From contig JAEEHL010000168.1 in NCBI GenBank assembly GCA_016280825.1, forward strand, positions 1 through 48,960: a stretch of DNA of 48,960 nucleotides, given 5' to 3'. Below, in pieces: positions 25,686-48,877 of this stretch (position 1 is the first letter of the stretch; each line of letters starts with the position of its first letter). Source of the DNA: Verrucomicrobiota bacterium (GTDB lineage Bacteria > Verrucomicrobiota > Kiritimatiellia > RFP12 > UBA1067). Below the pieces are notes generated by a model. It saw nothing but the letters and a program-made list of their open reading frames with translations. It was not told where the DNA came from and searched no databases. The translations under genes and the position numbers were made by a program.

Positions 25686-25851
25686 CCCGCAGATTACCCG
25701 CGCAGGGCTTCCGTGGGCGCGTCCGCGCCGTCCGCCCGTGCAAACGCCTACGCCACAAGGGGAACGCGCCCTGCGAGCGAATTTGCGCGTTATGCGCGAC
25801 GCCCCGCTTCTTCAGGCGAAAACGGGCGTTGCCCCCCCCCTATACCCCCCT

Positions 25852-25886
25852 CTATAAAATACAATAAAATATAATATAATATATTA
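25852..25886. other. AT-rich island (35 bp almost pure A/T), preceded by C9 and C6 tracts
   Basis: ctataaaatacaataaaatataatataatatatta sits in an otherwise GC-rich genome. C9 at 25832-25840 and C6 at 25845-25850. Confidence 0.8.
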
Positions 25887-25947
25887 GTCTACGCCGTAGT
25901 ACGGCGAAGACTACGCCGTAGTATGCGACGGACTACGCCGTAGTATA
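25887..25947. repeat. iteron/operator array 1: three copies of CTACGCCGTAGTA at exact 22-bp spacing
   Basis: Copies start at 25889, 25911 and 25933. The core ACTACGCCGTAGT is a 13-bp palindrome about its central base. Confidence 0.85.
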
Positions 25948-25996
25948 GGAGGCGGCTGTCGCGGCGGCGAAAATCCAGCGCAGGGAACGCCGCATC

Positions 25997-26071
25997 GTTT
26001 TTGCCCTTGTTTTTATGGGGTGAAAACGAGGCGACTCGCGTTTTGCCCTTGTTTTTAGGGGATGAAAACGA
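25997..26071. repeat. two copies of a ~33-bp palindromic motif (CGTTTT-GCCC-N9/10-GGGG-GAAAACG)
   Basis: 25997-26029 and 26040-26071, with centres ~41.5 bp apart. The same motif class recurs three times at 45124-45235. Confidence 0.75.
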
Positions 26072-26095
26072 CATTGGAAATTTTCAAATTTTCAC

Positions 26096-26124
26096 TTTAC
26101 AAATATGCGAAAATTTGGTATAAT
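26096..26124 (+). promoter_or_regulatory. early promoter TTTACA-N17-TGgTATAAT
   Basis: -35 at 26096-26101 and -10 at 26119-26124. The spacer aatatgcgaaaatttgg is shared with three other promoters. An A-tract repeat aaattttcaaattttca lies upstream. Confidence 0.7.
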
Positions 26125-26203
26125 TCATAACCGTCAAGAGGGGAATAGGCCAAGTGGCCGACCCCCGACCCTTGGCAAGACGGGAAAAATGACGGAGGTT
26201 GAG

Positions 26204-26371
26204 ATGGTTCAAATCCAGTTCAGTGTCAGCGAGAGGTTGCTGGCGCACAGGGCGAAAGTCAGGGCGCAGGCGGCGGCTCGCTTGGCAGACCGCGACGCGT
26301 GGCTGAAGCGGATGGAAGCCCTCAATCACGGCAAACTCAAAACATACCCCGCTATTAACGAACGCGGGTAA
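26204..26371 (+). CDS. small hypothetical early protein
   Basis: ATG 26204 lies 5 nt after GGAGG, and ATG 26189 is an alternative. The track start 26105 lies upstream of the predicted transcription start. Confidence 0.5.
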   Translation: MVQIQFSVSERLLAHRAKVRAQAAARLADRDAWLKRMEALNHGKLKTYPAINERG

Positions 26372-26391
26372 AAAAGAAAGGAAACAAAGCG

Positions 26392-27372
26392 ATGAAGGCA
26401 ATGCAGAAAAACGACAGGTGCTACTCGACACTGAACGGCGGGAATAATCCGTTCAACTTCGACGGCGCACCGCGCACGGAACTCTCGGTGGAAATGGCTC
26501 GCTCCGCCGTGGACTTCGAGATACAGAAGAAGCCGTGCTTTGACGCGGGCGGGCGGCTTGTTAACGGGCTGTTCCACCTAACGAAGGACGACGACAACTC
26601 AATCGTCCCGTCGGCTGGCGTCGGGATAAAGTTCAAGCCCATACAGCACCGCGACGTGTTCGACAAGGTAATGGAGGAGATTATTCCGCAGTTCCCCGAC
26701 ATGACGCTGGAGACGGCGGGTACGCTGTACGGCGGCGGCATCGGCCTGTTCACCTTCCGCGTGGGCGACCTGTTCCATGTCAAGGGCGACAAGTCGCCGA
26801 ACGAAATGCGCCTGTTCATCAGCAACCCCTGCACGGGTTCGGGTTCGCTCGTCATGGGCTTCACGACCGTCCGCCTGTTCTGCCAGAATCAGATTGCGGC
26901 GGCTCGTCGCGGGGCGGCGAAGGACGGATACCGCATTCAGCACTCGAAGAACGGCGAAATGTACATGGGCGACGCCGTGAGGGAAATCGGGATTCAGGTC
27001 GCGGCGGCGAAGGAAATCAAGTTGCGCTCCGAGAGGCTTGCGTCCCTCGGCGTTGGCAAGGCGGCTTTGGAGAAGTGCCTTGACCTTATCTACCCGTTCG
27101 GGAAGTTGGAGGAGGGTTCCGCTGGTCACACGCGGATGCTGAAACTCCGCGAGGAGGTTGTCAATCAGTTCGAGAGCGGGGCTACGGCGCAGACGATGGA
27201 GGGCAAGACTGGCTGGACGCTGTTTAACTCGTTCACCTATCCCGTCTTCAACCCCGAACGGCTGAACGAAAAGACCGACCTCGCCAACATCCAGTACGAC
27301 TCGATGATGTGGAGCAAGGCGGAGAAGGTTCGCCGTATGCTCACGGCGGTAGAGTCCGTAGTGGCGGCGTAA
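26392..27372 (+). CDS. DUF932-family protein (phage/plasmid-like)
   Basis: 326 aa. The pattern RLFISNPCTGSGSLVMGFTTVRLFCQNQI and the overall length resemble DUF932/TIGR03299 proteins. Confidence 0.6.
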   Translation: MKAMQKNDRCYSTLNGGNNPFNFDGAPRTELSVEMARSAVDFEIQKKPCFDAGGRLVNGLFHLTKDDDNSIVPSAGVGIKFKPIQHRDVFDKVMEEIIPQFPDMTLETAGTLYGGGIGLFTFRVGDLFHVKGDKSPNEMRLFISNPCTGSGSLVMGFTTVRLFCQNQIAAARRGAAKDGYRIQHSKNGEMYMGDAVREIGIQVAAAKEIKLRSERLASLGVGKAALEKCLDLIYPFGKLEEGSAGHTRMLKLREEVVNQFESGATAQTMEGKTGWTLFNSFTYPVFNPERLNEKTDLANIQYDSMMWSKAEKVRRMLTAVESVVAA

Positions 27373-27440
27373 TGCGCAGGGGGGCGGGGCAACCCCCGCC
27401 CTCCTTTCCAAGGCAATCCAAGAGAGAACTGGAGGCTGAT

Positions 27441-28247
27441 ATGGAAGACAGGCAGGACGAGGTCATTGAGAAGATAAAGAAGGCCATGAGGCTCGCTCGC
27501 AAGGCGGGAACGGACGGCGAACGGGCGGCGGCGGAAGCGGCGGCGAAACGCCTTGCCGACGCACACGGCATTTCGCTTGAGTCCGTGGAGTACACGGAAC
27601 ACGACGCGAAGGCTGTCCGCGTGGACGGCGGGGAGGCGAAGTGGACGCGGACGGGCAAGGAGTGCCACTACGCTGGAATAATACTCCGCAAGCACTTCGG
27701 CGTCATCGTAATCCAGCACTTCAGGCGTGGCAACCGCAAAATGAAACTGGACTTCATCGGTAGCCGCCTGAACATCGCCATCGCGGAGTATGTCTACGAG
27801 ATTCTGTGGCGCGAGAGCCTTCGGGCGTGGTGCGAGGCGCATAAGGCTGTCGTCAAGGAGTACGACGCAATCATGGAGGCGAACGGCGTAGAGCATCGGC
27901 GCGACTGGGCTGGGCGGCGTCAGCGACCCGTCCTGCTGAAGAAGGACTCCTTCATGTGCGGCTGGTTCGCCCGTATCGACGAGAAGTTGACTGCGCACCC
28001 GCTCCGAAACGACATGGCGCAACTGGAGGCGGAGAAGAAGGCGGCTGAAGACCTGCTGAAGCGTCAGCAGGGCGTGACGAACAGGAACATCCGCCGCGAC
28101 AGTTCCGACGCGGAGAGCGCGGCGAAGGGCTACGCCGAGGCCGACAAGGTAAATCTCTCCCGCCCGTGCGAGGGCAGGGGGCGTTCCCCGCTTCAGGTGG
28201 GCGGCGGCGCAAGCCCGTTCGCGCTTGCGGACAGGAGGGCGTCGTGA
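27441..28247 (+). CDS. DUF2786-domain protein
   Basis: The N-terminus VIEKIKKAMRLARKAGTDGERAAAEAAAKRLADAHGISLESVE is typical of DUF2786. SD ggagg precedes the start. Confidence 0.7.
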   Translation: MEDRQDEVIEKIKKAMRLARKAGTDGERAAAEAAAKRLADAHGISLESVEYTEHDAKAVRVDGGEAKWTRTGKECHYAGIILRKHFGVIVIQHFRRGNRKMKLDFIGSRLNIAIAEYVYEILWRESLRAWCEAHKAVVKEYDAIMEANGVEHRRDWAGRRQRPVLLKKDSFMCGWFARIDEKLTAHPLRNDMAQLEAEKKAAEDLLKRQQGVTNRNIRRDSSDAESAAKGYAEADKVNLSRPCEGRGRSPLQVGGGASPFALADRRAS

Positions 28248-28282
28248 GCGAGGCAGTCAAGCCAGAAGCGGCAGGAGGGATT

Positions 28283-28663
28283 ATGAACAAAACAATCAGA
28301 CCCGACCTCTGTATCAAGCCCGACCTCGTGCTGAATATGAAGTACGAGTGGCTGGCGAAGGTCTGGAACGGCGAGAAGACCGTGGAATACCGCGAGCGGA
28401 AGCCGTACTGGGACAGGCGCATCGGCGGCTGGGTGGGACAGCGGGGGAAATTCGTGCTGATGGTCTGGGGCTATCGGCGCGACACCCCCGCCGTCCTTCT
28501 TCAGGTCGATAGAACTGACATAGGCAAATGCCCCTACAAGGGGTGGACTGGAGAATACTACCGCCTCCACTTCGCCGTCGTGGGGCGTTATCAGAAGTAT
28601 GGAGATTTGCTTGCGCCGATGGACGGCTCGGTGCGCATGGAAGAAAGGAGCAACAAACGATGA
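28283..28663 (+). CDS. ASCH domain protein
   Basis: SD aggaggg. LNMKYEWLAKVWNGEKTVEYRERKPYW resembles an ASCH N-terminal strand. Confidence 0.6.
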   Translation: MNKTIRPDLCIKPDLVLNMKYEWLAKVWNGEKTVEYRERKPYWDRRIGGWVGQRGKFVLMVWGYRRDTPAVLLQVDRTDIGKCPYKGWTGEYYRLHFAVVGRYQKYGDLLAPMDGSVRMEERSNKR

Positions 28664-29022
28664 ACACAAAGATGAAAGTGGTCGTAGACGGGAACTTCCT
28701 GAACTACGGCGGCACAATCCTGAACAGGGCGGAGGTCGCGGAGGCCGACACGCTGAACGGGATGGTGATTATGAGGAGCGGACATCAGTATTTTCTGGAG
28801 CCGAACGCGCTGTGCGCTTGGTTCTCCGATACGATGGACTACTCGAAGCCGCCCGTCGGAAAGGGCGGCAAGCCCGATGAACGGGCGATACGCGAGGTCG
28901 TGGAGTGCGCGGCTCGCGTGATAATGCCGCCGTCCGACAGCACGGACGGGGCGTGGCTGGAATGGGCGCGTAGCCTTCAGGCGAAGGCTCGCCGTGCGCT
29001 TGGAATGGAGGTGCGCGAATGA
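28660..29022 (+). CDS. hypothetical protein
   Basis: ATGA coupling, 120 aa. Confidence 0.6.
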   Translation: MNTKMKVVVDGNFLNYGGTILNRAEVAEADTLNGMVIMRSGHQYFLEPNALCAWFSDTMDYSKPPVGKGGKPDERAIREVVECAARVIMPPSDSTDGAWLEWARSLQAKARRALGMEVRE

Positions 29023-29240
29023 AAAAGCAAGATGCAATGAGCCGCGCAGAGGCGGCGTATATTCTTCTGCAAATGGCAGGGGGAGAGATATCGGTCAAGC
29101 AGTGTGAAGCATTGCAAACGGCGGTGCGCAACCTTGTGAAGCGGCATTTTGACTGCAAGAAGAATAAGGCAAGATGGAAGGATAAGGCAATAAATAAGAT
29201 GCACTTAGACGGGGCGGCAAACAAGGAGGACGGCAAATGA
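29019..29240 (+). CDS. hypothetical protein
   Basis: ATGA coupling, 73 aa, lower GC than its neighbours. Confidence 0.55.
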   Translation: MKKQDAMSRAEAAYILLQMAGGEISVKQCEALQTAVRNLVKRHFDCKKNKARWKDKAINKMHLDGAANKEDGK

Positions 29241-31756: not shown

Positions 31757-32086
31757 ATGAAGGCGATATGCGACGCGCTAAAGAAGATTGTCGAATTGAC
31801 TACCCCGTGCGAAGGCGTGACTTCAATCGAACTTCAAGTCCAAGCCGAAGCCATTACCGCCCTCTCAATCCCACCACGCGAGTGCGATATGTTCGCGGAC
31901 GAGAAACAGGCGGACGCGCTTCACGCGGCGTTTATCGAACACTGCAACAGGTGCGACTGCCCTATGGGGTGCGACCACCGCAAGAACCCGCGTTTCCTTC
32001 TCGACGGAAACTGCGCTTCAATCCTGAAGTGCTTTGCGCGTTTCGCGCTGTCGAAGGCGACGCCAAAGAAAGGCGGTGCGAAGTGA
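31757..32086 (+). CDS. Cys-rich paralog C
   Basis: ATG 31757 (31742 is an alternative). ALSIPPRECDMFADEKQADALHAAFIEHCNRCDCPMGC. Confidence 0.55.
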   Translation: MKAICDALKKIVELTTPCEGVTSIELQVQAEAITALSIPPRECDMFADEKQADALHAAFIEHCNRCDCPMGCDHRKNPRFLLDGNCASILKCFARFALSKATPKKGGAK

Positions 32087-32820
32087 ATGTCGCATGGTTT
32101 TCGTGCGGCGTATCGTCCGCCGTTTCCTGTTGGCTCGTTCGTGGCGAACTGGACGAAATCCATTACCAGCACATAAACGACCAGCACCCTGATTCCCTGC
32201 GATTCCTTCACGACGTGGAAGTATTGCTCGGTAAGCCGATTGAGATACATCGCTCTCCATACGGCTCGGTCGATGCGGTATGTCGTGCGTTTGGCTTCCT
32301 TAAGGGGGCATACGGCGCACGATGTACGGAAGTATTAAAGAAGCGCGAGCGCAAGAAGTGGGAGCATGAACATCAGGGGCGGCATACATACTTTTGGGGA
32401 CTGGATTGCAACGAGAGACGCCGCGTTGACGGCATACTCCGCGCCATGCCAGACTACGACCACCGCTTTCCGCTGATTGAGCGTAGCATGACAAAGCAGG
32501 ACGCGCACGAACTCGCCGCACGACTGGGGCTGAAACGACCTGCCATGTATGATATGGGGTACGAGAACAATAATTGCATCGGCTGTCTAAAGGGCGGCAT
32601 CGGCTACTGGAACAAAATCCGCAAGGACTTTCCAGAGGTGTTTGCGGCAAGGGCGAAACTCGAACGGGACTTGGGTCGCTTTATTCTAAAAGACGCAGAC
32701 GGCAATCCGTTATGGCTCGATGAACTTGCGGAATATAGAGGGCGAACCCCGAAGGCAATTCCGAATATGGAGTGCGGGATTATGTGTGAAATAGCAGTCA
32801 ACGAAGGCGGTGCGTCGTGA
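32083..32820 (+). CDS. PP-loop ATPase / PAPS reductase-like protein
   Basis: GTGA coupling. N-terminus VNVAWFSCGVSSAV (an SGGxDS-like PP-loop) and C-terminal NNCIGCLKGGIGYW. 245 aa. Confidence 0.55.
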   Translation: MNVAWFSCGVSSAVSCWLVRGELDEIHYQHINDQHPDSLRFLHDVEVLLGKPIEIHRSPYGSVDAVCRAFGFLKGAYGARCTEVLKKRERKKWEHEHQGRHTYFWGLDCNERRRVDGILRAMPDYDHRFPLIERSMTKQDAHELAARLGLKRPAMYDMGYENNNCIGCLKGGIGYWNKIRKDFPEVFAARAKLERDLGRFILKDADGNPLWLDELAEYRGRTPKAIPNMECGIMCEIAVNEGGAS

Positions 32821-34139: not shown

Positions 34140-34447
34140 CGATGATTGTATGGACGGCGCAGAATAGGAACGGCGAATTGCTTGCCGAGGGCAATCCGAA
34201 TCCGCACCTGTCGTATTCGTTCTGCTATCCCTACGACCCCGAATACCTGCGGACGACGCGGTGGCTCTTTTGTCGCACGAAGCGGGAAATCGAAGAACAC
34301 ATCCGCAAGTGGCACGACGAATACCGCCGCGCCCTTGCCGCTTACCCCCGCAGTCTTGGGCGCAGGCATTGGCACTGCCGACCCGTGCGCATGGTGGTAT
34401 CGTGGAAGCCCGCGAGCGGACGGGAATTAGCAGATTTCGCAAGTTGA
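34136..34447 (+). CDS. hypothetical protein
   Basis: ATGA coupling, 103 aa. Its stop TGA lies inside the -35 of the next promoter. Confidence 0.55.
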   Translation: MTMIVWTAQNRNGELLAEGNPNPHLSYSFCYPYDPEYLRTTRWLFCRTKREIEEHIRKWHDEYRRALAAYPRSLGRRHWHCRPVRMVVSWKPASGRELADFAS

Positions 34448-34472
34448 CAAACGGGCGAAAATTTGCTATAAT
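34444..34472 (+). promoter_or_regulatory. early/middle promoter TTGACA-N17-TGcTATAAT (full consensus)
   Basis: -35 at 34444-34449 and -10 at 34467-34472. The spacer aacgggcgaaaatttgc matches the promoter family. Confidence 0.75.
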
Positions 34473-34546
34473 TCAAATCAAAGACGGCGGGGAAGGTCGC
34501 GTGTGCGTCCGCCGCGTCGCCAGAATACGAACGAAAGGGTCAACGA

Positions 34547-36395: not shown

Positions 36396-36625
36396 TGCCG
36401 AACGGTCTCTACAGGCAGGGAATCCCCATGTGGCACAGCCGTTTCGTCGATGCGAGGAACCACCTCTCCGAAGCGGTCGGGCTGATGGAGCAAGCCTACT
36501 TCGAGGACAGTCACAATCCGAAATTCGACGCGCTCTACAAGCGCATGAGGGCGGTGCTGAAGTCCGTGGACGCGCAGGCGATGCGCAACTGCAGGCGCGG
36601 CAGGAAGGAGAAGTGGCTGAAATGA
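36392..36625 (+). CDS. hypothetical protein
   Basis: ATGA coupling, 77 aa. Confidence 0.55.
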   Translation: MMPNGLYRQGIPMWHSRFVDARNHLSEAVGLMEQAYFEDSHNPKFDALYKRMRAVLKSVDAQAMRNCRRGRKEKWLK

Positions 36626-37344
36626 GCGAACCCGCATTTGACTTCCGCGTCCGCCCTGCGGCGGAGTTCATAGACCGCTTCGGCAACGAGGGCGACGTGT
36701 GGACTGCGACGCTGTACGACAGCCGCGAGGAGTGGCTGGCTGGGCGCGTGGGACACCTCGGCGCGTCCGCCGCGTACATGGTACTCGACACCGAAATGCG
36801 CAAGCGGCTCTTCGACGAAATGACGGGAAGCAGGCCGCACGAAGACCTGTCGGGGAACGAACTGGTACAGCGCGGCGTCGCGGCTGAACCGCTCGTCCGC
36901 TCGCTGATTGCCGTGGAGAATCCAGACTGGGACATCTACGACGGCGGCAACCTTCTGTTTGTGAGCAAGCGCAAGCCGTTCGCCTCCGCGACGCTGGACT
37001 GCATAGCCGTCCACCGCAAGACGGGCGAACTCTGCGACATCGAACTGAAGGAAGCCCCGTGGAGCAACAAGTGGAAGGGCGAGTATGCGCCCGACGGCTA
37101 CTTCGCGCAGGTGATGCATCAGTCTTTCGTGACGGGCATCAACCACTGCGTCATCCACCCGCGTATCTACCTCCGCAGGGACGACGGCTTCACCACCTCG
37201 TTCGAGCGGTCGTATGAATACTGGATGGACGACCCCGCAATCGCCCCGCAGGTCGCAGACCTGATGGAGCGCGAGGAGAAGTTCATGGACGAGGTGCGGA
37301 ACGGGCGGTACAAGCCCGTACTGTCGCTCCCGTCCGTGTTTTAG
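36622..37344 (+). CDS. YqaJ-like viral recombinase exonuclease (PD-(D/E)xK)
   Basis: GHLGASAAYMVL, AAEPLVRS, SATLDCI, CDIELKEAP and YFAQVMHQSFVTG appear in the order expected for lambda-Exo/YqaJ family proteins. Confidence 0.8.
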   Translation: MSEPAFDFRVRPAAEFIDRFGNEGDVWTATLYDSREEWLAGRVGHLGASAAYMVLDTEMRKRLFDEMTGSRPHEDLSGNELVQRGVAAEPLVRSLIAVENPDWDIYDGGNLLFVSKRKPFASATLDCIAVHRKTGELCDIELKEAPWSNKWKGEYAPDGYFAQVMHQSFVTGINHCVIHPRIYLRRDDGFTTSFERSYEYWMDDPAIAPQVADLMEREEKFMDEVRNGRYKPVLSLPSVF

Positions 37345-37373: not shown

Positions 37374-37402
37374 TTTCCAAACTGCCGAAAAAATGGTATA
37401 AT
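37374..37402 (+). promoter_or_regulatory. early/middle promoter TTTCCA-N17-TGgTATAAT
   Basis: -10 at 37397-37402. The spacer aactgccgaaaaaatgg is of the family type. Confidence 0.6.
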
Positions 37403-37445
37403 TCACACATCCCGCATAAGGGAAAAACAAGAAAGGAAAAATGCG

Positions 37446-37697: not shown

Positions 37698-38647
37698 AGA
37701 TACTGACAGACCTCTCCGCGATGCCGAAGCGCGTGGAGACGAACATCGACGAGGTGGAGCCTATCATTAAGTCCGCCATCGCCCGCGTGGACGGGCTTAT
37801 CGTCACCGACAAGAAGGAGGACATACTCGCCGCCGACGCCGACGCCGCGAAACTGACGAAGATGGCGAAGGCCATCCAGCGTTTCCGCATCGACCACATC
37901 GCGCTCTGGAAGGAGCCGATGGAGGCGTTCGAGACGAAGTGCAAGGACGCGGAGAAGCGGCTCAACGAAGCCGCCGACACGCTCCGCACGAAGACCTCGG
38001 AAGTCAAGGATATGTGGAGGGCGAAGAAGCGCGAACTGTGCGCTGGCGTCTGGAAGGCGAAACTCGCCGAGGCGTTCGCGGGGCAGGACGACGTTATCGC
38101 CTGCGAGGGTGCAAAGGCGTTCTTCGACCTGTGGACGAACCCGAAGACGAAGGGTACGTGGGTCAACTTGTCGGTGGACATCCGCGCCGTGGAGGAGGCG
38201 ATGGACGCCGAAATCGTGCGCATGAAGGCTATGCTCGGCACTGTCGCCGCCAACTACGGGAACGCGGACGACGAGGTGAAGATGAAGGCTCGCAAGTCCT
38301 GCCTCGCCTCGTTCGACATGAACGCGGTCGTGGCGGAGGTGAACGCATGGGTGAAGGAGCGCGAGGAAATGGAACGTGCGAAAGCCGCCCTTGCCGCGAA
38401 GCGCGAGGCACAGGCGGCGGAGGCGGCGAAAAAGGCGGCAAATCCCGCCCCTGCCGCGCCCGCGCCCGTCACCCCGCCGCCTCCCCCGCCCCCTGCGGCG
38501 GACGCCCCTGCTGGCGAAACTGACGCCTCTGCGACGGAGCGCGTGGAGACATACAACCTCGCCGTCACGGGAACGCGCAAGGCACTCATCGCCCTGCGGC
38601 AGTACGGCATCGGACTCGGAATTACATTCAAGAACATCGACAAGTGA
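37685..38647 (+). CDS. DUF1351-like recombination-associated protein
   Basis: 320 aa. The N-terminus FELKILTDLSAMPKRVETNIDEVEPIIKSAI and the position before RecT are typical of DUF1351 proteins. Confidence 0.55.
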   Translation: MFELKILTDLSAMPKRVETNIDEVEPIIKSAIARVDGLIVTDKKEDILAADADAAKLTKMAKAIQRFRIDHIALWKEPMEAFETKCKDAEKRLNEAADTLRTKTSEVKDMWRAKKRELCAGVWKAKLAEAFAGQDDVIACEGAKAFFDLWTNPKTKGTWVNLSVDIRAVEEAMDAEIVRMKAMLGTVAANYGNADDEVKMKARKSCLASFDMNAVVAEVNAWVKEREEMERAKAALAAKREAQAAEAAKKAANPAPAAPAPVTPPPPPPPAADAPAGETDASATERVETYNLAVTGTRKALIALRQYGIGLGITFKNIDK

Positions 38648-38660
38648 AGGAAGGAAAAAA

Positions 38661-39680
38661 ATGAGCGAAAAGGAAAATCCGAACGCCGCCCCCGCGAACG
38701 GGGTGGCTACAACCGAAGCGGCGAAGCCCGCCGCGAAGCCCGCGCAGGCGGCGAAGGGCGCGATGGACGTTGCGAAGAAGGGCAAGGAACGCCCCGAAGT
38801 CGCAATCCTGAAGCGGTTTAACGACAAGAACGCGGCGGACAGCCTGTACAATGTCATCCTCCAGATGACTGGCGGCGACAAGTTGTTCGTTGACAAGTTT
38901 GTCATGTGTTGCAAGGCACAGGTAGACCGCCACTGGAAGCGGAACGAGAAGGGCGAGTGGACTAATCCGTTCCTCGTCATCCCCGTCAACTCGCAGTTGG
39001 ACGCGCTCTACAAGTGCGCGTCGCGGAAGATACTCCCCGACGGCTACAACTGCAACCTCATTCCGTACATCGGGCGCGACGAGAAGCGCGTGGACGTGTC
39101 GATTGACTTCAAGGGTCTTATCGACATCGCAATCCGCGAGGGCATCATCCTCGACTGCGACGCGAAGGAGGTCTGCGACAACGACGACTTCGAGTGGTCG
39201 ATGGGCGAAATCACGCGGTGGAACATCGACTTCCGCCGTCCTCGCGGTGCGATATACGGCTACTGCGCGTGGGCGAGGTTGCCGAACGGCGAGAAAAAGT
39301 GGTCGTTTATGACAAACGAGGAAATCGCCGCCGTGCGCTCCTGCGCGAAGACGCAGAAGATATGGGACAAATGGGAAGGCGAAATGTCGAAGAAGACAGT
39401 TATCCGCCGCCTGTTCAAGACCCTGCGCAACACGCCGAAACTCGTTGACCTGATGGAACTCGACAACGAGGCTTACGACATGGAGCAGGACGAGAACGGC
39501 GTGTTCCAGCACCAGCCGTCCCGCCGCCGCGCCGCGCCTGTGCGCCAGTTGACGCGTCAGCCGACCGCCGCCCTTCCCGCCCCTGCGGAGGAGGTGCAGG
39601 ACGAGCCTGAACCCGAACCCATACCAGCCGTCGCGGAGGCGGCGGAAGTTTCGCAGGCGCAGAGCGCGTACGTGTTCTGA
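38661..39680 (+). CDS. recT: RecT-family single-strand annealing protein
   Basis: ALYKCASRKILPDGYNCNLIPY......VDVSIDFKGLIDIAIREGII...V.DNDDFEW matches the RecT core pattern. Confidence 0.8.
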   Translation: MSEKENPNAAPANGVATTEAAKPAAKPAQAAKGAMDVAKKGKERPEVAILKRFNDKNAADSLYNVILQMTGGDKLFVDKFVMCCKAQVDRHWKRNEKGEWTNPFLVIPVNSQLDALYKCASRKILPDGYNCNLIPYIGRDEKRVDVSIDFKGLIDIAIREGIILDCDAKEVCDNDDFEWSMGEITRWNIDFRRPRGAIYGYCAWARLPNGEKKWSFMTNEEIAAVRSCAKTQKIWDKWEGEMSKKTVIRRLFKTLRNTPKLVDLMELDNEAYDMEQDENGVFQHQPSRRRAAPVRQLTRQPTAALPAPAEEVQDEPEPEPIPAVAEAAEVSQAQSAYVF

Positions 39681-39692: not shown

Positions 39693-40421
39693 ATGGCTAC
39701 AATGGCTACATCAAGGAAAATCGACTCCGCCTTCTTCGACCAGAAGTGGGTGGACGACCTTGTAGCCGCTGGCAAGTCGCACTATGTGCTGTTGTTCCTC
39801 TACCTCGTTGTCACGCGAACGAACCCCGTCGGGCTGTTCGAGGTGAACCCGAGGCTGTGGAACTTCAAGTTGAATCCGCCGACCCCCTTCACGGGCGACG
39901 ACGTGTTTTCCGTCTACGGGAAGCGCGTCCGCCGCGTGGAGGGGCATCCCGACAAGGGCATCATCGTCGGATTCCTCGACTACCAGCGGAACTACGGCAA
40001 GTCCTCGCGCCAGTGGGAATGGGTCGAGAAAGACCTGAAGGCGGTCGGGCTGACATACGACGACCTCCTGCGCTTTGCCGACGAGAGCGACGAGGCGCAG
40101 ATGGAGTTCAACATCGGCCTGCCGCCGAAGCCCCTGAAGCACCGCGACAGGGCGGACGCGGAGCCGCCGCAGAGGAACGTCATCCCGCCGAAGGTGGAAT
40201 GGGTGCGCGACTATTGTTCCACGAGGAACAACGGCATAGACGCGCAGGCGTTCTTCGACTTCTACGAGCAGAAGGGGTGGAAGGTCGGCAAGAACAGGAT
40301 GGAGGACTGGCAAGCCGCCGTCCGCACATGGGAGGCTCGCCGCAAGGCGGAGGGCGTTCCGAAGGCGAAGGAGGCGGCGACGCCCGTGCGCAACGTCACG
40401 GGAGTAAGGAGGAAGTTCTGA
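39693..40421 (+). CDS. replication initiation / replisome organiser candidate
   Basis: The C-terminal AQAFFDFYEQKGWKVGKNRMEDWQAAVRTWE block is common in phage DnaD-like or replisome-organiser proteins. The gene lies directly before the loader. Confidence 0.45.
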   Translation: MATMATSRKIDSAFFDQKWVDDLVAAGKSHYVLLFLYLVVTRTNPVGLFEVNPRLWNFKLNPPTPFTGDDVFSVYGKRVRRVEGHPDKGIIVGFLDYQRNYGKSSRQWEWVEKDLKAVGLTYDDLLRFADESDEAQMEFNIGLPPKPLKHRDRADAEPPQRNVIPPKVEWVRDYCSTRNNGIDAQAFFDFYEQKGWKVGKNRMEDWQAAVRTWEARRKAEGVPKAKEAATPVRNVTGVRRKF

Positions 40422-41050
40422 TGGAACTGGACTTCGACTCCATACTGCGCGACCTTCCCGCCTGTCGGCGCAAGGCTCCGCCGCCAGTCACGAGGGACGC
40501 CCTCGTTGCGAAGGCGGCGGCTATGGCGCGGCGCGGCTACGTCCACACGGAGGAGTCGCTGAAGGCACTCGCCGCGTACCTTCAGGGGTACGGCGTCCTG
40601 CTGTCGGGCGGAATGGGGCTTGGCAAGACCTTCTTCTTCGAGACGGTCAACCCCGAACCCCTGCCCGTCCTCTCTTTCAACCAGTGCTTCCTCTGGAAGT
40701 ACGAGGAACTGGCGGAGTGGCTGGACGACAGGTGCGGAAGCGAAATAGTTCTTGACGACATCGGGTGGGAGAGCGGACGGGCGAGCAACTACGGGACGCG
40801 CTTCGACGCGCTTCAGGTTGCGCTCGACTTCCGCCTGTCGCACGGATGCCATGCGCGGACGCACATTACGACGAACTGCACGAGCGACGAACTGGTCGAG
40901 AAGTACGACCCGCACGTCGTTGACCGAATCTACGAGTGCTGTCGGTGTTTCGTTCTCCCGAACGCGGAGAGCAGGCGCGAGGCGCAAGTGGACTACACGT
41001 ACCTCCGCAACGCGGAGTTCAGGCGGCAAAACGGAACAGGAGAACCATAG
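40421..41050 (+). CDS. DnaC/IstB-like AAA+ helicase loader
   Basis: Walker A LSGGMGLGKT and Walker B IVLDDIG. Confidence 0.7.
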   Translation: MELDFDSILRDLPACRRKAPPPVTRDALVAKAAAMARRGYVHTEESLKALAAYLQGYGVLLSGGMGLGKTFFFETVNPEPLPVLSFNQCFLWKYEELAEWLDDRCGSEIVLDDIGWESGRASNYGTRFDALQVALDFRLSHGCHARTHITTNCTSDELVEKYDPHVVDRIYECCRCFVLPNAESRREAQVDYTYLRNAEFRRQNGTGEP

Positions 41051-41052: not shown

Positions 41053-41511
41053 ATGAGTCAGTTGTCAGACATAGCGGACAGGCTGGAGCGGAACGGGGCT
41101 ACCGTGAGCGCACCCGCCATGCTACGGACGCTGGACGGGCATTACACGCTACGGCGCATCGGCACGAGGCAGGAGAAGAAGCAGGTTCTTGACGCGGACG
41201 GAAAGCCCGTGAAGAACTGCTACTTCCCGCACCTCGCCATCACCGCGACGTGCTACGCGAGGACGTGGAAACTGCTGGAGAAGGCGAAGGCCGTATTCGG
41301 CTACCCCGCGTCGAAGCGCACGAGCAACGTGGGCGAGGTGTGGGAGGATAAACTTCTCCTCGCCTGCGAGCATATCGTGCGCTGGCTGGAACACGAAATC
41401 GACGACGCGGAAATGCAGAGGCAAATCCAGCGTCTCGTCAACCCGCTCCCGAAGGCGGAGTATCTTCGGAACATAAACAAGAAACCAAAGGAAGGACAGG
41501 AAAATGAGTGA
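41053..41511 (+). CDS. hypothetical protein
   Basis: 152 aa, GC3-rich codons. Confidence 0.6.
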   Translation: MSQLSDIADRLERNGATVSAPAMLRTLDGHYTLRRIGTRQEKKQVLDADGKPVKNCYFPHLAITATCYARTWKLLEKAKAVFGYPASKRTSNVGEVWEDKLLLACEHIVRWLEHEIDDAEMQRQIQRLVNPLPKAEYLRNINKKPKEGQENE

Positions 41512-41893
41512 CAGCAAGTGCGTATTCGTCGGGCGCGTCGTGACCGTCGAGAAAACGGAGACGCTGGGGAAAGACCCCGCGAAGCCGTTCTACAAGCGCG
41601 TAATCGTCGTGGACGACGCGGAGGACGGGGCAAAGTACCCGAACCCCGTGCCGTTCGAGGCGACGGGCGACAAGTGCCAGTACCTCGACAGGTACAAGAA
41701 GGGCGACGAGGTGGAAATCGAGTTCTACCCGAACGGACGGGCGTGGGAAGACCCGCGCACGAAGAAGACCCGCTACTTCTCCAGCAACCGCATCGGCTTT
41801 ATTAAGCCCGTCGGCGACGGCGGAGTTGACGACGGGACGGACGACGGCGCGGAAGCCGCCGCTGGCGAGGACGCGAACGATTTGCCGTTCTGA
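41504..41893 (+). CDS. single-stranded DNA-binding protein, DUF3127-type OB fold with an acidic DLPF tail
   Basis: The layout KRVIVVDDAEDGAKYPNPVPFEATGDKCQYLD..KKGDEVEIEFYPNGRAW resembles DUF3127. The C-terminus EDANDLPF resembles the SSB tip. Confidence 0.6.
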   Translation: MSDSKCVFVGRVVTVEKTETLGKDPAKPFYKRVIVVDDAEDGAKYPNPVPFEATGDKCQYLDRYKKGDEVEIEFYPNGRAWEDPRTKKTRYFSSNRIGFIKPVGDGGVDDGTDDGAEAAAGEDANDLPF

Positions 41894-43366: not shown

Positions 43367-43381
43367 AGGCGAGGACGCTCC

Positions 43382-44576: not shown

Positions 44577-44603
44577 AGTGGCTCGTGCTGGAGGACTAAC
44601 GCC

Positions 44604-45116
44604 GTGCGCTGTACTCTGAACATCGACCCTTCAACACTGTCGTCGGCGCAGTTGAAGATTATGTCATTCCGCTTCAAGCGCATTATCACGAATCCGAAGG
44701 TGCGCAAGGCGATGCTCCGCGTGGAAGCCGCTTTCAAGCCGTATGCGCGGCTGGCGCGTGCCGTTCAGGAGTCCGCGCCGTTCGGAGCGGTCGCGCTCGG
44801 CGTGAAGTATTACTTCCCGTTCCCGAAGTCGGGGACGAAGAAGGAGAAGGCGGCTCGTCGCGGCGGTCAGCCGTGCGTGTCCGCCCTGTACGGCGACCTC
44901 GACAATCGGAACAAGGCGTTTCAGGACGCGCTCGTGAAGGCGGGCGCGTTCCCCGACGACAGGTACGTGTCCACCCTGCTCCTCCGCAAGCGGTACACGC
45001 TCTCCACCCCGCGAATCGAGGTGGCTGTCGTAGCAGACAAGGGGGGCTACGACAACGAGCCGTTCACACTCCACGAACGCCCCGAAGACGCGACGCCCGA
45101 CAGTCTGGGCGCGTAA
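44604..45116 (+). CDS. rusA: RusA-family Holliday junction resolvase
   Basis: GTG start after ggagga. GDLDNRNKAFQDALVKAGAFPDDRYV matches the RusA catalytic Asp pattern. Confidence 0.8.
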   Translation: MRCTLNIDPSTLSSAQLKIMSFRFKRIITNPKVRKAMLRVEAAFKPYARLARAVQESAPFGAVALGVKYYFPFPKSGTKKEKAARRGGQPCVSALYGDLDNRNKAFQDALVKAGAFPDDRYVSTLLLRKRYTLSTPRIEVAVVADKGGYDNEPFTLHERPEDATPDSLGA

Positions 45117-45123
45117 AAACGCC

Positions 45124-45235
45124 CGTTTTGCCCTTGAAAATAGGGGCTAAAAAAATTTCAAGATTTTTTTCGCCCATAAAATAAGGGCGAAACGCGACTA
45201 ACATCAAAAACACCCTTATTTTTCAAGGGGTTTTT
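45124..45235. repeat. three phased palindromic motifs (T/A-tract-GCCC-N9-11-GGGG/C-A/T-tract)
   Basis: 45124-45155, 45168-45192 (perfect tttcgccc-N9-gggcgaaa) and 45206-45235, with centres ~41-42 bp apart. Same class as 25997-26071. Confidence 0.75.
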
Positions 45236-45241
45236 CGTATC

Positions 45242-45271
45242 TTTACAAACATACGGAAAATGTGCTATAAT
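45242..45271 (+). promoter_or_regulatory. promoter TTTACA-N18-TGcTATAAT for the 45.3-48.3 kb cassette
   Basis: -35 at 45242-45247 and -10 at 45266-45271. The spacer aacatacggaaaatgtgc is of the family type. Confidence 0.7.
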
Positions 45272-45352
45272 ATTGGCGTTCCTGCGGGACAGGTGAAAGC
45301 GCGGTGCTTCCCCGCCTGTGGGACGGGTCAAAACAAGAAAGGGTCAAAAACA

Positions 45353-45499: not shown

Positions 45500-45529
45500 T
45501 CATCAACCCCAACAGAAAGGAACCCTACA

Positions 45530-46345
45530 ATGAACACGATAAACGAAAACGAAGTCCGCCTCGCCAACCTGAAGGCCTCCGCCGATAAACGCCGTGCGGA
45601 GTTTTGCGACATCCGCGCCGAGGTGACGCGCCAGATAGCGAAAATCATCGAGGACGCCGTCGCCGCAAGCGGCGTCAGCGGCTACACGCTCCGCAAAGGC
45701 GAGAACGGGGAACTCCGCGACACGGAGTACATGACGCTGGACGGTGAAATCGACGGCGAGCGTCTGCACGACATCGACCTCTACTACCGCAACGACTCGT
45801 GGCGCGACGAGGACGGCGGCGAGCGCGTCTTCTCGGTGAATACCTGTTGTTTCGGCCGTGTGAAGGCTGGCGACAAGAGCGGCGTTGCCTACTACCTCCT
45901 CATGGGCTACCTCGTCACTCACCTTCAGGAGATTCAGGACGCGCTGAACGCCATCCCCGACTGGGAGGCCTACAATCGCTCCCGCCGCATCTACCACATC
46001 AGCCGCAACGATGCGGAGGCGTTCGAGCGCAAGATGGACGCGGAGGCAAAGATGGCGAAGGAAGCCGCCGTGCTGGAGCGGCTTATGGAGGGCGCGGAAA
46101 TTGCCGTCCACTACACGACGGACTTCGACCTCGTGCGCGGCGTCCACGTCCTGACGGGCATTAAGATCATGACCGTCGAGAAGGTCACGAACAAACTCGT
46201 GTTCTTCAAAGACCGCAGGGGGCAGAACAAGAAGGCGGACGTCGTCGCCAACCTTGTACGCGGCATCGACAATTGCGGCTGGTCGTTTGCGGCGGACGTT
46301 GACATGGCCTTTCCCCGCGACTGCAAGGACGGCGCGAACTTCTAA
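45530..46345 (+). CDS. hypothetical protein (271 aa)
   Basis: The leader gaaaggaaccctacaATG is identical to that of the 47031 gene. No motif was recognised. Confidence 0.65.
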   Translation: MNTINENEVRLANLKASADKRRAEFCDIRAEVTRQIAKIIEDAVAASGVSGYTLRKGENGELRDTEYMTLDGEIDGERLHDIDLYYRNDSWRDEDGGERVFSVNTCCFGRVKAGDKSGVAYYLLMGYLVTHLQEIQDALNAIPDWEAYNRSRRIYHISRNDAEAFERKMDAEAKMAKEAAVLERLMEGAEIAVHYTTDFDLVRGVHVLTGIKIMTVEKVTNKLVFFKDRRGQNKKADVVANLVRGIDNCGWSFAADVDMAFPRDCKDGANF

Positions 46346-46395
46346 CGACCCGCAAAGGAAAGGAGCAAACGACATGATTATCGAACGCAAACCCA

Positions 46396-46689
46396 ATGTC
46401 CGTTCAGGAAGCCTACGCAATCGCCCGTCAGTTGATTGCGCAGGCCAAGGCGAACGCGCTGTCCGCCTACAACAAGGCGTTCTCGGACTTCCAGCGCAAG
46501 CACGGGTTCTTCACCCACCGCGAGGAGCGCGACTACGAGCATCACGGCGACGGCTGGCGTCACATGAAGACCTACACGGCTCCCGACGGCGCGAACTTCT
46601 ACGAGGTCGTCCAGTACCCCGCGCAGGAATACGGCCTCCGAGTGGAATACTGGAGCGACGACGCCGTTTCGACAATCGCATACCTCTGA
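46396..46689 (+). CDS. hypothetical protein (97 aa)
   Basis: The frame looks coding. The strong SD aaaggaaaggagc actually precedes an out-of-frame ATG at 46374. Confidence 0.5.
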   Translation: MSVQEAYAIARQLIAQAKANALSAYNKAFSDFQRKHGFFTHREERDYEHHGDGWRHMKTYTAPDGANFYEVVQYPAQEYGLRVEYWSDDAVSTIAYL

Positions 46690-46713
46690 ACCCGAACGAA
46701 AGAAGGAGCGGAC

Positions 46714-47004
46714 ATGAAAAGGCAAAGCGACTTCCAGCAGTATAAGGGCGTTATCGAAGACCTCGGCTACGGGTCGAGAATGGGCGAGGAAATCCCCGCC
46801 ACCACCACCTACCGCGAAGCCGTCGTGGAACTGACGTACTACATCGGGATGGCGAACGAGCGGGGCGAACCCTTCAATGTGGAGGTGTTCGGCGACGGGT
46901 ACGACGCGCCCGTTCCGTCCGTTCGCAGGGCGTACTTCAGGGCAAAGCGGCTCTTGAAGAAGTTCTCCGCCGTCCCCAATCCCAACAGCCGCCTAAACAA
47001 CTAA
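46714..47004 (+). CDS. hypothetical protein (96 aa)
   Basis: SD gaaggagcgg. Confidence 0.6.
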   Translation: MKRQSDFQQYKGVIEDLGYGSRMGEEIPATTTYREAVVELTYYIGMANERGEPFNVEVFGDGYDAPVPSVRRAYFRAKRLLKKFSAVPNPNSRLNN

Positions 47005-47030
47005 ACAACCCAAACGAAAGGAACCCTACA

Positions 47031-47831
47031 ATGCTCACGAAAACCGAAATTGAAACCTGTTGCGCGAACCTGATGCAACGCTTCAACGCGCTGGAGGAGA
47101 CGCGGCGGAACGTCGCAAAGGCGTTCGACACCGCCATCGGACGCCGCCTGTCCGCCCTTGTGGAGAACGGGCTGGGTCGCTACAACATCCCCGACGACCG
47201 CAATTCAGCCAGCGCCCGTTTCTTCTCCAGCAACGCGCTGAAGTCCTCTGGGTGCCGTTGCTACTTCATCTGGGACAACGACCGCAAGACGCTCGTAATG
47301 GGATTCTGCCCCGCGAACGAGTACAACCTGTCGGGCGGAATCCGCTACCTCCAGATATACGCCCAGCGTCGTGAAGAGAGGAAGGGCGCGGACGAGGTGC
47401 GCGCAACGTTTCAGGTTGACGGGCTGTGCAATACGCACTACCTCACCGCGTCGTTGCGCGACAACAGCCTCTGCGACGCCCCATACCTCATGTTCTCGGA
47501 GGAGACGCGCAAGAACTGCAACGGCAATACCCGCAACCCCCTAGAAGACTACATCCGCAACCCGAAGGACGTTCAGGCTCTCGTGGACGCGAATAACGCC
47601 CTGAAGGAGTACGAGCGGCGGCTCCATCGCATCGCCCACCTCATGGAAGCGGCTTCGGAGATACTGTCGGCTCTGGAGTCCCGCTTTGACTGCACGGAGA
47701 AGGAGCGCGACGAGCGCGTCCGCTTCATCTTTGGGCTGTCGGGCGAGTGCGCGACCCCGCTCGCTACAGTGTACCGCGTCAAGTTGTCGCCAGAACCCTA
47801 CGCCGCGCCTACGGACGGCAGTGCAGAATAG
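47031..47831 (+). CDS. hypothetical protein (266 aa)
   Basis: The leader is identical to that of the 45530 gene, and the size is similar. No motif was recognised. Confidence 0.65.
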   Translation: MLTKTEIETCCANLMQRFNALEETRRNVAKAFDTAIGRRLSALVENGLGRYNIPDDRNSASARFFSSNALKSSGCRCYFIWDNDRKTLVMGFCPANEYNLSGGIRYLQIYAQRREERKGADEVRATFQVDGLCNTHYLTASLRDNSLCDAPYLMFSEETRKNCNGNTRNPLEDYIRNPKDVQALVDANNALKEYERRLHRIAHLMEAASEILSALESRFDCTEKERDERVRFIFGLSGECATPLATVYRVKLSPEPYAAPTDGSAE

Positions 47832-47852
47832 ACAGGACGGAAGGAGGCTGAT

Positions 47853-48305
47853 ATGACCCTTGCAGAAGTAGCCCAAGAACTCGGCTGTTCCATCGCCCAA
47901 GCCAGACCAGCCCACCGTCGCCTTATGGCGGCGTTGAAGCGGGAGGGCGAGGCGTTTCTGGCCGATGAGCGCAGGCGCATGGAGGAGCGCGAGAAGCGCA
48001 AGTCACGACCCCCTCGCCGCCGCCTCCCCCAATGGTGCAGGCCGTTCTGGGAGCGCCGCGACGGAGCGCAACACATCGTTTACTGTTCCGCCAAGCGCAG
48101 GCACGACAAGGAGCCGACGACCGCCTTCTGGCTCTGGTTCAACGGACAGCCTGTCGCCAAGTCCGATACTCTCGACGGGGCGAAGAGCCTTACCGCTCTT
48201 CGGGCGATGCTTTACGACACCTATGTCTGGGACGCTTCCCAGTGGGAGGACGAGTTGCGGAACAATCCCCAGATAGCCGAGGTGCGCAAGGCCTGCGGCG
48301 TTTAG
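47853..48305 (+). CDS. HTH DNA-binding protein (sigma-70 region 4-like N-terminus)
   Basis: MTLAEVAQELGCSIAQARPAHRRLMAALKRE resembles region-4/LuxR-type HTH. SD ggaaggagg. Last gene before the terminators and iteron array 2. Confidence 0.55.
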   Translation: MTLAEVAQELGCSIAQARPAHRRLMAALKREGEAFLADERRRMEEREKRKSRPPRRRLPQWCRPFWERRDGAQHIVYCSAKRRHDKEPTTAFWLWFNGQPVAKSDTLDGAKSLTALRAMLYDTYVWDASQWEDELRNNPQIAEVRKACGV

Positions 48306-48332
48306 ATTTTGCGAATCGGGCGATACGACCCG

Positions 48333-48358
48333 CCTTGCGACTTGACCCCGCAAGGTTT
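48333..48358 (+). terminator. hairpin ccttgcg/cgcaagg followed by ttt
   Basis: 7-bp stem, 9-nt loop, short T-run. Confidence 0.4.
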
Positions 48359-48374
48359 AACAGCCCGACTTCGC

Positions 48375-48415
48375 GCGGCGGAAGGACTTTGACCCCTTCC
48401 GCCGCTTTTTGTTTT
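48375..48415 (+). terminator. strong intrinsic terminator
   Basis: gcggcggaagg (48375-48385) pairs with ccttccgccgc (48395-48405), followed by tttttgtttt. Confidence 0.8.
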
Positions 48416-48421
48416 CCCTGC

Positions 48422-48543
48422 CACTACGCCGCCCGTATCGACTACGCCTAGACTACGGGCTACTTTCCAGCGGACTACGGCGTAGTATGCCGCCTACTAC
48501 ATCGTAGTCTAGGGATTAGTATGTTATAAACTACGGCGTAGGC
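48422..48543. repeat. iteron/operator array 2 (six full or half ACTACGSCGTAGT sites)
   Basis: Site centres are near 48429, 48447, 48458, 48480 (perfect gactacggcgtagta), 48502 (tactacatcgtagtc) and 48535. Spacings are about 18/11/22/22/33 bp. Confidence 0.8.
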
Positions 48544-48582
48544 TAAATTATATTATATTATTCATGTATTATTATAATTTTA
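48544..48582. other. AT-rich island 2, followed by a G6 tract
   Basis: taaattatattatattattcatgtattattataatttta. Its reverse complement aligns with island 1 (25852-25886). Confidence 0.8.
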
Positions 48583-48606
48583 GGGGGGTACTATATACGC
48601 GCATAC

Positions 48607-48618
48607 GCGCACGTGCGC
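48607..48618. repeat. perfect 12-bp GC palindrome GCGCACGTGCGC
   Basis: Read directly. It is embedded in acgcgcatacgcgcacgtgcgcg, and a related gcgcgttatgcgcg sits at 25787-25800 in module 1. Confidence 0.7.
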
Positions 48619-48877
48619 GAGAGGGTTAAAAACCCCGCTTCTCCAAATACCCCTCAAATCCGCGATTTAAGCGCGACCCCGCCCAAACCAAATAAAACCC
48701 CCACCCCCACCCCCGAAAACGCCGTGGCGACCCGAATTTCGCCGTATATTGACGCGCTGGCGACCTGTGCCACGCCGAAAACCCCGTTTTGACCAGTTAA
48801 GACCCCCAAATTGCGCCCCTACGCCCCCTGCAAGCCGCCGCCCGTTTCGCCCTATACCCACCCCGCCGCCGACCCCC

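Follow-up and report, generated by a model that had tools for sequence, protein, structure and literature searches.

Bacteriophage SPP1 replicates from a genome that carries two sites, oriL and oriR, which have the same organisation and are both bound by the initiator gp38. Replication fires at oriL, and the initiator at oriR has been proposed to stall the fork, which an exonuclease, a RecT-like annealase, a single-strand DNA-binding protein (SSB) and a resolvase then turn into sigma replication (PMC6316719, PMC3485210). The fork-barrier role of oriR is only a proposal even in SPP1 (PMC3485210). Here we analyze a comparable pair of sites in a window of 48,960 bp, which is one entire metagenomic contig from an uncultivated phage. 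The late region of this contig, with the head and tail genes, extends to ~25.6 kb, and the early genes span 26.1 to 48.3 kb. Module 1 (25785-25944) separates the last late gene from the DUF932 operon, module 2 (48423-48619) lies after the terminator of the early operon, and each combines a GC box, an AT island and an array of short dyads. Sequence and comparative evidence lead us to regard the modules as a conserved, duplicated cis-acting element, most likely one of the iteron-origin class in the style of SPP1.

Two further systems invite comparison. In phage P4, ori and crr are two separated clusters of one short repeat, both of which are needed in cis and are bound by one protein. In lambdoid phages the sequence of the iterons varies together with the initiator. 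Lambda-type origins contain 4-6 iterons that are imperfect inverted repeats, with an AT-rich tract on one side (PMC7466680).

The contig contains two copies of one module

A preliminary description of the contig had proposed that the region 25780-25950 is repeated, in inverted orientation, at 48421-48625. We confirmed that this duplication is real and far beyond chance. The first region and the reverse complement of the second align with a Smith-Waterman score of 70, compared with 20.5 ± 3.1 (maximum 34) for dinucleotide shuffles, 42 for the direct orientation and 30 for the best unrelated stretch of the window. The local alignment takes in TAC6, the AT island and the iterons. GC boxes are present in both modules (gcgcgttatgcgcg at 25785-25798, and gcgcgtatgcgcg as the reverse complement of about 48593-48605) and fall outside the alignment because module 1 carries ~35 extra bases between its GC box and its C-run.

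Palindromic 13-mers stand at each of the positions first described for them, at 25888, 25910 and 25932 in module 1 and at 48474, 48496 and 48530 in module 2. With up to two mismatches the 13-mer pattern occurs 8 times in the window against 0.93 expected, a count reached in 0 of 100 shuffles. The dyad is best written ACTAC-N3-GTAGT, and when it is generalised to ACTAS-N3-STAGT with at most one mismatch, all 6 of its sites in the 48,960 bp fall inside the two modules. The dyads of module 1 keep a 22-bp phase (spacing 22, 22), while the good and degenerate dyads of module 2 follow one another at 22, 22, 12 and 22 bp and are accompanied by ACTACG half-sites at about 48423, 48441 and 48451. As in iteron origins, each module contains at least three helically phased repeats, at spacings of 22 or 12 bp.

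Iteron origins also place an AT-rich unwinding element next to the repeats, and such an element adjoins the repeats in both modules. No 40-bp windows of the contig have a weaker duplex than the AT islands, at 25851-25890 and 48543-48582, with nearest-neighbor stabilities of -36.5 kcal/mol in module 1 and -36.3 kcal/mol in module 2. The mean over the whole contig is -61.9 kcal/mol (standard deviation 4.1) and the next-lowest value is -43.7 kcal/mol. Scans of the contig for repeats and for duplex stability found no other candidate origin. The coordinates of the modules and of the features discussed below are collected in Table 1.

Table 1. Positions of the two modules and of associated features in the 48,960-bp window.
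Feature	Position	Strand	Basis or remark
Module 1 GC box	25785-25798		gcgcgttatgcgcg, two TGCGCG units; weak compared with module 2
Module 1 C9-TATA-C6 pyrimidine tract	25832-25850	+	between GC box and AT island
Module 1 AT island, candidate DNA-unwinding element	25851-25887		second least stable 40-bp window of the contig
Module 1 iteron array	25888-25944		three dyads (T/A)CTACGCCGTAGT at 25888, 25910 and 25932
Module 2 iteron array	48423-48542		good dyads at 48474, 48496 and 48530; degenerate dyads at 48452 and 48508
Module 2 AT island, candidate DNA-unwinding element	48543-48582		least stable 40-bp window of the contig
Module 2 G6 run	48583-48588	+	other-strand counterpart of the module 1 C-run
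Module 2 perfectly alternating purine/pyrimidine tract	48592-48619		28 nt, tatatacgcgcatacgcgcacgtgcgcg
Promoter-like TTGACA-17-TAGAAT (with TG), short hairpin and terminator	25584-25695	+	kept in L006, L008 and L010
Early-operon sigma-70-type promoter TTTACA-17-TATAAT	26096-26124	+	about 150 bp downstream of module 1 iterons
Early-operon intrinsic terminator	48375-48414	+	12-pair stem conserved in 5 relatives, then T-run
Promoter TTGACA-18-TACAAT of the operon after module 2	48878-48907	+	conserved in L005 and L028
YqaJ/RecE-like exonuclease (recombination-dependent replication set)	36430-37344	+	domain homology
RecT-family annealase	38376-39680	+	domain homology
Candidate initiator/replisome organiser, 242 aa	39693-40421	+	lambda-O-like C-terminal domain homology
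DnaC-like P-loop helicase loader (putative)	40421-41050	+	start codon overlaps initiator stop codon
DUF3127 SSB	41504-41893	+	domain homology
RusA Holliday-junction resolvase	44604-45116	+	domain homology
Truncated large terminase	start of contig, within 1-1257 region		alignment to relative
Portal-position gene	1280-2950		gene after terminase in relatives

Both modules and their shared repeat type are conserved among relatives

Relatives of the phage were found as contigs of ~56-63 kb in ENA and Logan assemblies, several of them apparently from rumen samples, and the phage of the window is probably of rumen origin. Complete relatives of ~59 kb include ERZ27280754 k141_1930051 and ERZ919326 scaffold_636. 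Every relative that we fetched retains the modules: module 1 was found in L006, L008, L009 and L010, and module 2 in L003, L004, L005, L028, L029 and L113. Contig L259 starts 70 bp before DUF932, so that its sequence excludes module 1, and an AT patch in L115 was rejected as a promoter. Conservation of the modules reaches across three lineages so diverged that their portal and DUF932 proteins share only 55-80% identity.

Three types of repeat, each specific to its lineage, can be told apart in these phages, and all share a CTA(C/G) core. ACTAC-N3-GTAGT (type A) is found in the window and in L008, L028, L029 and L113, and ACTAG-N3-CTAGT (type B) in L006 and L005. In type C the repeat is CTAC-N-CTAG, recurs every 12 bp and is accompanied by CACTACgcaGTAGTG; this type is found in L009 and L004, which belong to one contig, and in L010 and L003, which we paired via the same portal protein (P0004). 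Within any one lineage the repeat type is identical in both modules. Given that the repeat type changes jointly at the two sites, we infer that a single phage-specific protein, encoded by the phage and slowly diverging, probably reads both of them. In type C relatives two TTATCTACA motifs (DnaA-box-like, with one mismatch) lie close by the module 1 repeats, outside the array (L009 9462-9490), and a separate palindrome, TAGGACAAAtt...TTTGTCCTA, lies past the GC box (L009 9630-9680, L010 9595-9650); the window has neither.

The concerted change of repeat type also bears on the possibility that one module is a non-functional duplicate or recombination scar, kept like the other by RecT-mediated gene conversion and not by selection. 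Within a genome the AT islands and repeats are alike in sequence, beyond composition, as gene conversion would leave them, and both an exonuclease and an annealase are encoded by the phage. However, none of the three diverged lineages has lost either copy, both copies still have intact, phased dyads despite the changed repeat type, and a decaying copy would not follow a change of specificity. We consider this explanation very improbable.

Relative orientation, unlike repeat type, is not constant. In the clade of the window the copies are inverted, with scores for the inverted versus the direct orientation of 70 versus 42, 56 versus 39 and 59 versus 34, while in the sister lineage L009/L004, where both modules lie on one contig, they are direct repeats (65 direct versus 21 inverted). 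The inverted arrangement therefore fails as a conserved feature, and with copies that are direct in L009/L004, models that need inversion symmetry, such as the earlier suggestion that the modules gate both ends of the early region, are unlikely. It is true of the contig itself that the modules bracket the early region with their AT islands facing the late genes. The contig, however, begins in the middle of the terminase gene, and this truncation partly accounts for the "late-gene side" of module 2, as relatives have a promoter and several kb before the terminase. From these comparisons the inverted bracketing is specific to one clade and apparently no functional requirement. The distance from a module to the nearest promoter varies among lineages as well; varying orientation and varying promoter distance together fit a cis-acting site that is independent of the flanking transcription units. 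We also rejected a telomere, a terminal inverted repeat and an invertible segment, as the modules are internal, are direct in one lineage, and lie among genes that are all on one strand.

Transcription signals surround the modules

Terminators directly precede both modules. On the side of module 1, the unit at 25584-25695 consists of a strong sigma-70-like promoter at the end of the last late gene, a hairpin (GACCTC...GAGGTT) and an intrinsic terminator, is conserved in L006, L008 and L010 with a few compensatory changes, and looks like the gene of a small RNA of ~70-80 nt. Rfam and tRNA scans found nothing. This unit stops about 90 bp upstream of module 1 and may insulate it from late transcription. 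On the other side, the early-operon terminator stands immediately upstream of the module 2 iterons. Two successive hairpins with near-identical loops (ACTTGACCCC and ACTTTGACCCC) occupy 48336-48410, from the last early gene to module 2; the second of them is the operon terminator, and the loop motif shared by the two is kept in L005, L028 and L113 while the stems co-vary. The promoter at 48878-48907 follows about 260 bp downstream of the alternating tract of module 2.

Each module is intergenic and upstream of one of the two main operon promoters, the one at 48878 leading to packaging and late genes. This location would suit operator or enhancer-like sites, at which a phage transcription factor binds the dyad arrays and co-regulates or insulates the promoters at 26096 and 48878, with the AT islands serving as bendable or UP-like DNA. 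Helically phased palindromic 13-mers are typical of dimeric helix-turn-helix or ribbon-helix-helix regulators, and the lineage-specific sequences of the sites recall immunity specificity. Yet the arrays lie 150-390 bp from the nearest sigma-70-type promoters, at a distance that varies, module 1 is flipped between lineages, and no canonical promoter was detected within the AT islands. A lambda-type OL/OR operator pair would be expected to overlap divergent or early promoters and to flank a repressor gene, whereas here the dyads are at least 150 bp away and no repressor, Cro-like or integrase gene was found with Pfam, PHROGs or NCBIfam. Moreover, internal early promoters of the same class (8817, 34444, 37374 and about 45243) have no array, and the helix-turn-helix-like gene at 47853-48305 is missing in relatives with the same repeats. 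A shared operator set, which the preliminary description had offered as its alternative, is in our judgment weaker than the origin reading and rather unlikely.

The early promoter belongs to a family of near-identical promoters, TTTACAAA-n-GCGAAAAnTTGGTATAATTCA with a conserved spacer, at 8817-8848, 26096-26127, 34444-34475, 37374-37405 and about 45240-45272. This family suggests several internal early or middle starts and either a common factor that binds the spacer or an extended -10 element. Just upstream of two promoters of the early class (26096 and about 45243) we noted three copies of TTTTGCCCTTG(T/A)nnnnAnGGGG...AAAA, at 25999-26071 and 45126-45156, and a motif resembling it also stands upstream of the early promoter of L008; it may be a regulator site or a weak terminator.

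The early region encodes a candidate initiator, a loader and a recombination set

The most plausible reader of the repeats is the 242-aa product of 39693-40421. Its C-terminal domain (DWQAAVRTWE) recurs in proteins with a Phage_rep_O, DUF6291 or DUF1376 N-terminus, and also in phage proteins annotated as DUF4373 or "replication initiation protein". The N-terminal domain belongs to no Pfam family and does not match Phage_rep_O. In a structure model, residues 11-90 of this domain reach a predicted local distance difference test score (pLDDT) of 85-93 and are arranged helix-strand-helix-helix-strand-strand, so that the predicted order of elements is that of a winged helix. Helices are predicted at residues 53-60 and 70-78, and the putative wing carries an invariant R78-R81-HPDKG. 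A profile search with this protein in IMG/VR, JGI metagenomes and GTDB genomes returned mostly proteins that share the C-terminal domain only, with L113 and L114 as close matches, and no prophage copy.

The product of 40421-41050 is 75% identical to a protein of a relative that matches DnaC-like helicase-loader PHROGs and has a GxxGxGKT P-loop. The two adjacent genes probably form an initiator-loader pair of the lambda O/P or SPP1 gp38/gp39 kind, and the genome would thereby contain both of the genes that accompany an iteron origin, as assigned by homology only. No cluster of repeats and AT-rich DNA lies inside the initiator gene, which we count in favor of the modules as the origins. The genes for recombination-dependent replication that characterise the SPP1 type are present as well (YqaJ, RecT, DUF3127 SSB and RusA). 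Pfam, PHROGs and NCBIfam identified no primase or helicase domain in the early genes, and no primase-helicase was seen in the region of relatives that corresponds to the missing kb of the window.

Two other products were considered as binders of the repeats. The helix-turn-helix-like protein encoded next to module 2 (47853-48305, 150 aa) differs in its N-terminus between types A and B, and was rejected because its gene is absent from the type A relatives L028, L029 and L113; the product of 26105-26371 was rejected because it is not conserved in L006. The 39693-40421 protein thus appears to be a better candidate reader of the repeats than the 47853-48305 product.

An alternating purine/pyrimidine tract is confined to module 2

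The preliminary description spoke of two copies of one module. These are not equivalent, as a long alternating purine/pyrimidine tract is found in module 2 only. At 28 nt the tract is longer than any run in shuffles (16.8 ± 1.9, maximum 27), and no other run in the window exceeds 15. It includes a 14-nt palindrome, CGCGCACGTGCGCG, and is predicted to be prone to form Z-DNA (left-handed duplex) or a cruciform. A counterpart of 26-42 nt stands in the same place, beyond the AT island and the G-run, in all 7 copies of module 2 seen, with its position kept among relatives and its sequence not. The GC box of module 1 has no long alternating run, and alternating runs of 16 or more are absent from every module 1 copy seen. 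The TGCGCGT 7-mer is not enriched in the window; the alternating run alone is unusual.

Several C-rich elements lie nearby. The C9-TATA-C6 element of module 1 is also found in module 1 of L006 and L008. This element (25832-25850) and a C5-A-C5-A-C5 stretch downstream of module 2 (48697-48713) are long C-runs of the + strand, and their G-rich complements on the opposite strand could form G-quadruplexes. The whole stretch 48620-48870 is C-rich and non-coding.

A tract confined to module 2 points to an additional function at this site, and the modules might be sites of DNA handling other than replication, either a centromere-like site for a ParB-like protein or pac sites for the small subunit of terminase. 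Downstream of module 2, relatives have a promoter, then an unannotated gene of 164-199 aa and 1-2 ParB_N genes, and at a greater distance a large terminase of the Terminase_3/6N type. P1 parS and SPP1 pac both combine short repeats with a bendable AT-rich segment. Against a ParABS system, in which palindromic parS sites have a cognate ParA/ParB pair, no ParA was found, and the ParB_N proteins encoded after module 2 are ParB_N-only and short or fused to a methyltransferase, that is, of the nuclease/methylase-associated type. Against packaging, a second pac 22 kb away that is direct or inverted according to lineage would cut or mis-orient packaging. The gene region with ParB_N and the terminase side is also absent from the window itself. 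On balance we find a centromere or pac function improbable for the modules, though part of module 2, its alternating tract together with the C-rich 250 bp ahead of the promoter, could have a role in packaging or in control of the late promoter.

It is likewise doubtful that the tract is a working part of an origin, for example a supercoil-driven switch for melting of the AT island or a mark that sets the primary origin apart from the barrier copy. The tract and the AT island are separated by a G/C run, and we know of no characterised phage origin that needs an alternating purine/pyrimidine element.

Comparison with SPP1, lambda and P4

The arrangement had been described as unlike that of any known phage, which is incorrect, as oriL and oriR of SPP1 are a precedent (PMC6316719, PMC3485210). 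Both phages have two distant sites per genome, each composed of known or, here, putative initiator-binding repeats and an AT-rich unwinding element, an arrangement that we find in three lineages. They share a single-strand gene layout and a headful-type terminase, and in both one of the sites is in non-coding DNA with transcription signals at its borders (PMC6316719, PMC3485210). The gene content corresponds too: the 5'-3' exonuclease (gp34.1), RecT-like annealase (gp35), SSB (gp36) and Holliday-junction resolvase (gp44) of SPP1 have counterparts here, and its initiator gp38 and loader gp39 compare with 39693-40421 and 40421-41050. The two systems differ in the form and setting of the repeats: those of SPP1 are direct and its oriL is located within gene 38, whereas the present phage has dyads at two intergenic sites. 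SPP1 also has a DnaB-type helicase of its own, for which no counterpart was found in our phage. An initiator N-terminal domain outside any Pfam family, the long alternating tract of module 2 and a relative orientation of the sites that varies by lineage further set the present phage apart.

With lambda the phage shares inverted-repeat iterons beside an AT-rich tract (PMC7466680), a helicase-loader gene directly after the initiator gene, and an initiator C-terminal domain common to proteins with a Phage_rep_O N-terminus. Unlike the present phage, lambda has a single origin that lies inside the O gene, its iterons are 19 bp and not 13 bp long, its P protein is not a DnaC-like P-loop protein, and the N-terminal domain of our candidate does not match Phage_rep_O. 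The parallel to P4 ori/crr drawn in the preliminary description fits less well than SPP1. The two separated clusters of the same short repeat are common to both, but P4 has direct octamer repeats and the multifunctional alpha primase-helicase, whereas the candidate here is of the organiser-plus-loader type and no alpha-type primase-helicase was found.

A proposed model of two iteron-type origins

Of the claims made at the outset, that of an ori-like module has become the best supported hypothesis, given the phased dyads beside the weakest duplex, the terminators, the matching lineage-specific repeats and the initiator-loader pair. We assign a probability of roughly 0.5 to the reading that the modules are two iteron-type origins, or one origin and one fork barrier bound by the initiator. 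From the anatomy, statistics, conservation, concerted repeat-type change and gene content presented above, we infer how protein binding, melting and initiation might proceed at the modules and what roles the two copies might have. The phage initiator, for which the lambda-O-like 39693-40421 protein is the prime candidate, would bind the ACTAC-N3-GTAGT dyads as dimers, and because the dyads repeat every one or two helical turns, the bound dimers would share one face of the DNA. In supercoiled DNA the resulting nucleoprotein complex would melt the adjoining AT island of ~40 bp, and the DnaC-like loader would deliver the host helicase. We regard module 2 as the probable primary origin, since its orientation is conserved and it has more repeats and the extra GC-rich alternating tract. 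Module 1 would be either a second origin or an initiator-bound roadblock of the kind proposed for SPP1 oriR. A fork stalled at module 1 could then be processed by the YqaJ exonuclease, RecT, SSB and RusA, which would switch replication from theta to the concatemer-forming sigma mode.

Several observations weigh against this reading. The contig has no canonical DnaA boxes, and neither module coincides with an inflection of its cumulative GC skew. The modules are not inside the initiator gene, in contrast to the origins of lambda and SPP1 oriL. The structure model of the 242-aa protein has a mean pLDDT of 70.8, a moderate confidence, and neither sequence nor fold searches of the PDB gave a significant match to the protein. 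When type A and type C phages were compared, the initiators were ~61% identical with differences throughout, and are thus well conserved between lineages that differ in repeat type. An alternating purine/pyrimidine tract has, to our knowledge, no established role in origins, and because module 2 closely precedes an operon leading to the terminase, part of this module could have a packaging role.

The phage genome and its relatives

By its gene content the contig is a tailed-phage genome with an incomplete left end. Residues 259-461 of the large terminase of a relative align from base 1 of the window, so that ~258 N-terminal codons are absent. The phage appears to be siphovirus-like with headful packaging and a genome of roughly 58-60 kb. 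Its base composition is ~60% G+C, and the + strand holds essentially all genes of the window. Between the terminase and the portal-position gene lies a gene with a Methyltransf_24 domain (514-1257) that is extra compared with relatives. The early products include DUF932, DUF2786/DUF7168, DUF5131 and PAPS-reductase-like proteins. The gene of the PAPS-reductase-like protein (31768-32820) has a third-position G+C of 0.56 against ~0.8 in its neighbors, which suggests a recent acquisition. The genes 45530-46345 and 47031-47831 have their ribosome-binding sites and first codons within a 65-nt repeat (77% identity), at 45508-45572 and 47009-47073. Despite their common 5' ends we rejected these genes as paralogues, as the proteins are otherwise unrelated; the repeat could be a common translational signal or a recombination joint.

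The region between module 2 and the terminase is absent from the window and known from relatives L003, L004 and L005, in which a promoter is followed by several kb of ParB-like, methylase and 7-deazaguanine genes. These segments (L004 1720-8476, L005 1691-6949 and L003 3578-8358) encode ParB_N, a DpdA-like transglycosylase, QueC/QueD/QueE/FolE, a SAM synthetase and DNA methylases, a gene set which indicates that phages of this group modify their DNA with 7-deazaguanine. The set varies by strain, and this is probably why contigs end at module 2 and within the terminase gene.

INPHARED, IMG/VR and GTDB genomes contained no close relatives. Nothing among the INPHARED phages matched the early half at the DNA level, and searches of IMG/VR with the exact iteron-pair pattern and with the DUF932 protein also returned no match. 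A DUF932-profile search returned distant relatives only (44-50% identity), from which the modules are absent.

Implications for replication in this phage group

The duplicated module opens no new class of elements, and only the alternating tract specific to module 2 lacks a known counterpart. Phased dyads next to the genome-wide minimum of duplex stability, in intergenic gaps that follow terminators, offer a practical means of annotating origins in metagenomic phages. If the modules are origins, the natural variants of types A, B and C would be a ready system in which to follow the co-change of an initiator and its sites at two loci simultaneously. The phage lineage would then also be a second, unrelated example of the SPP1 design, in which two matched origins are combined with a recombination set, and which has been proposed to time the switch from circle to concatemer replication.

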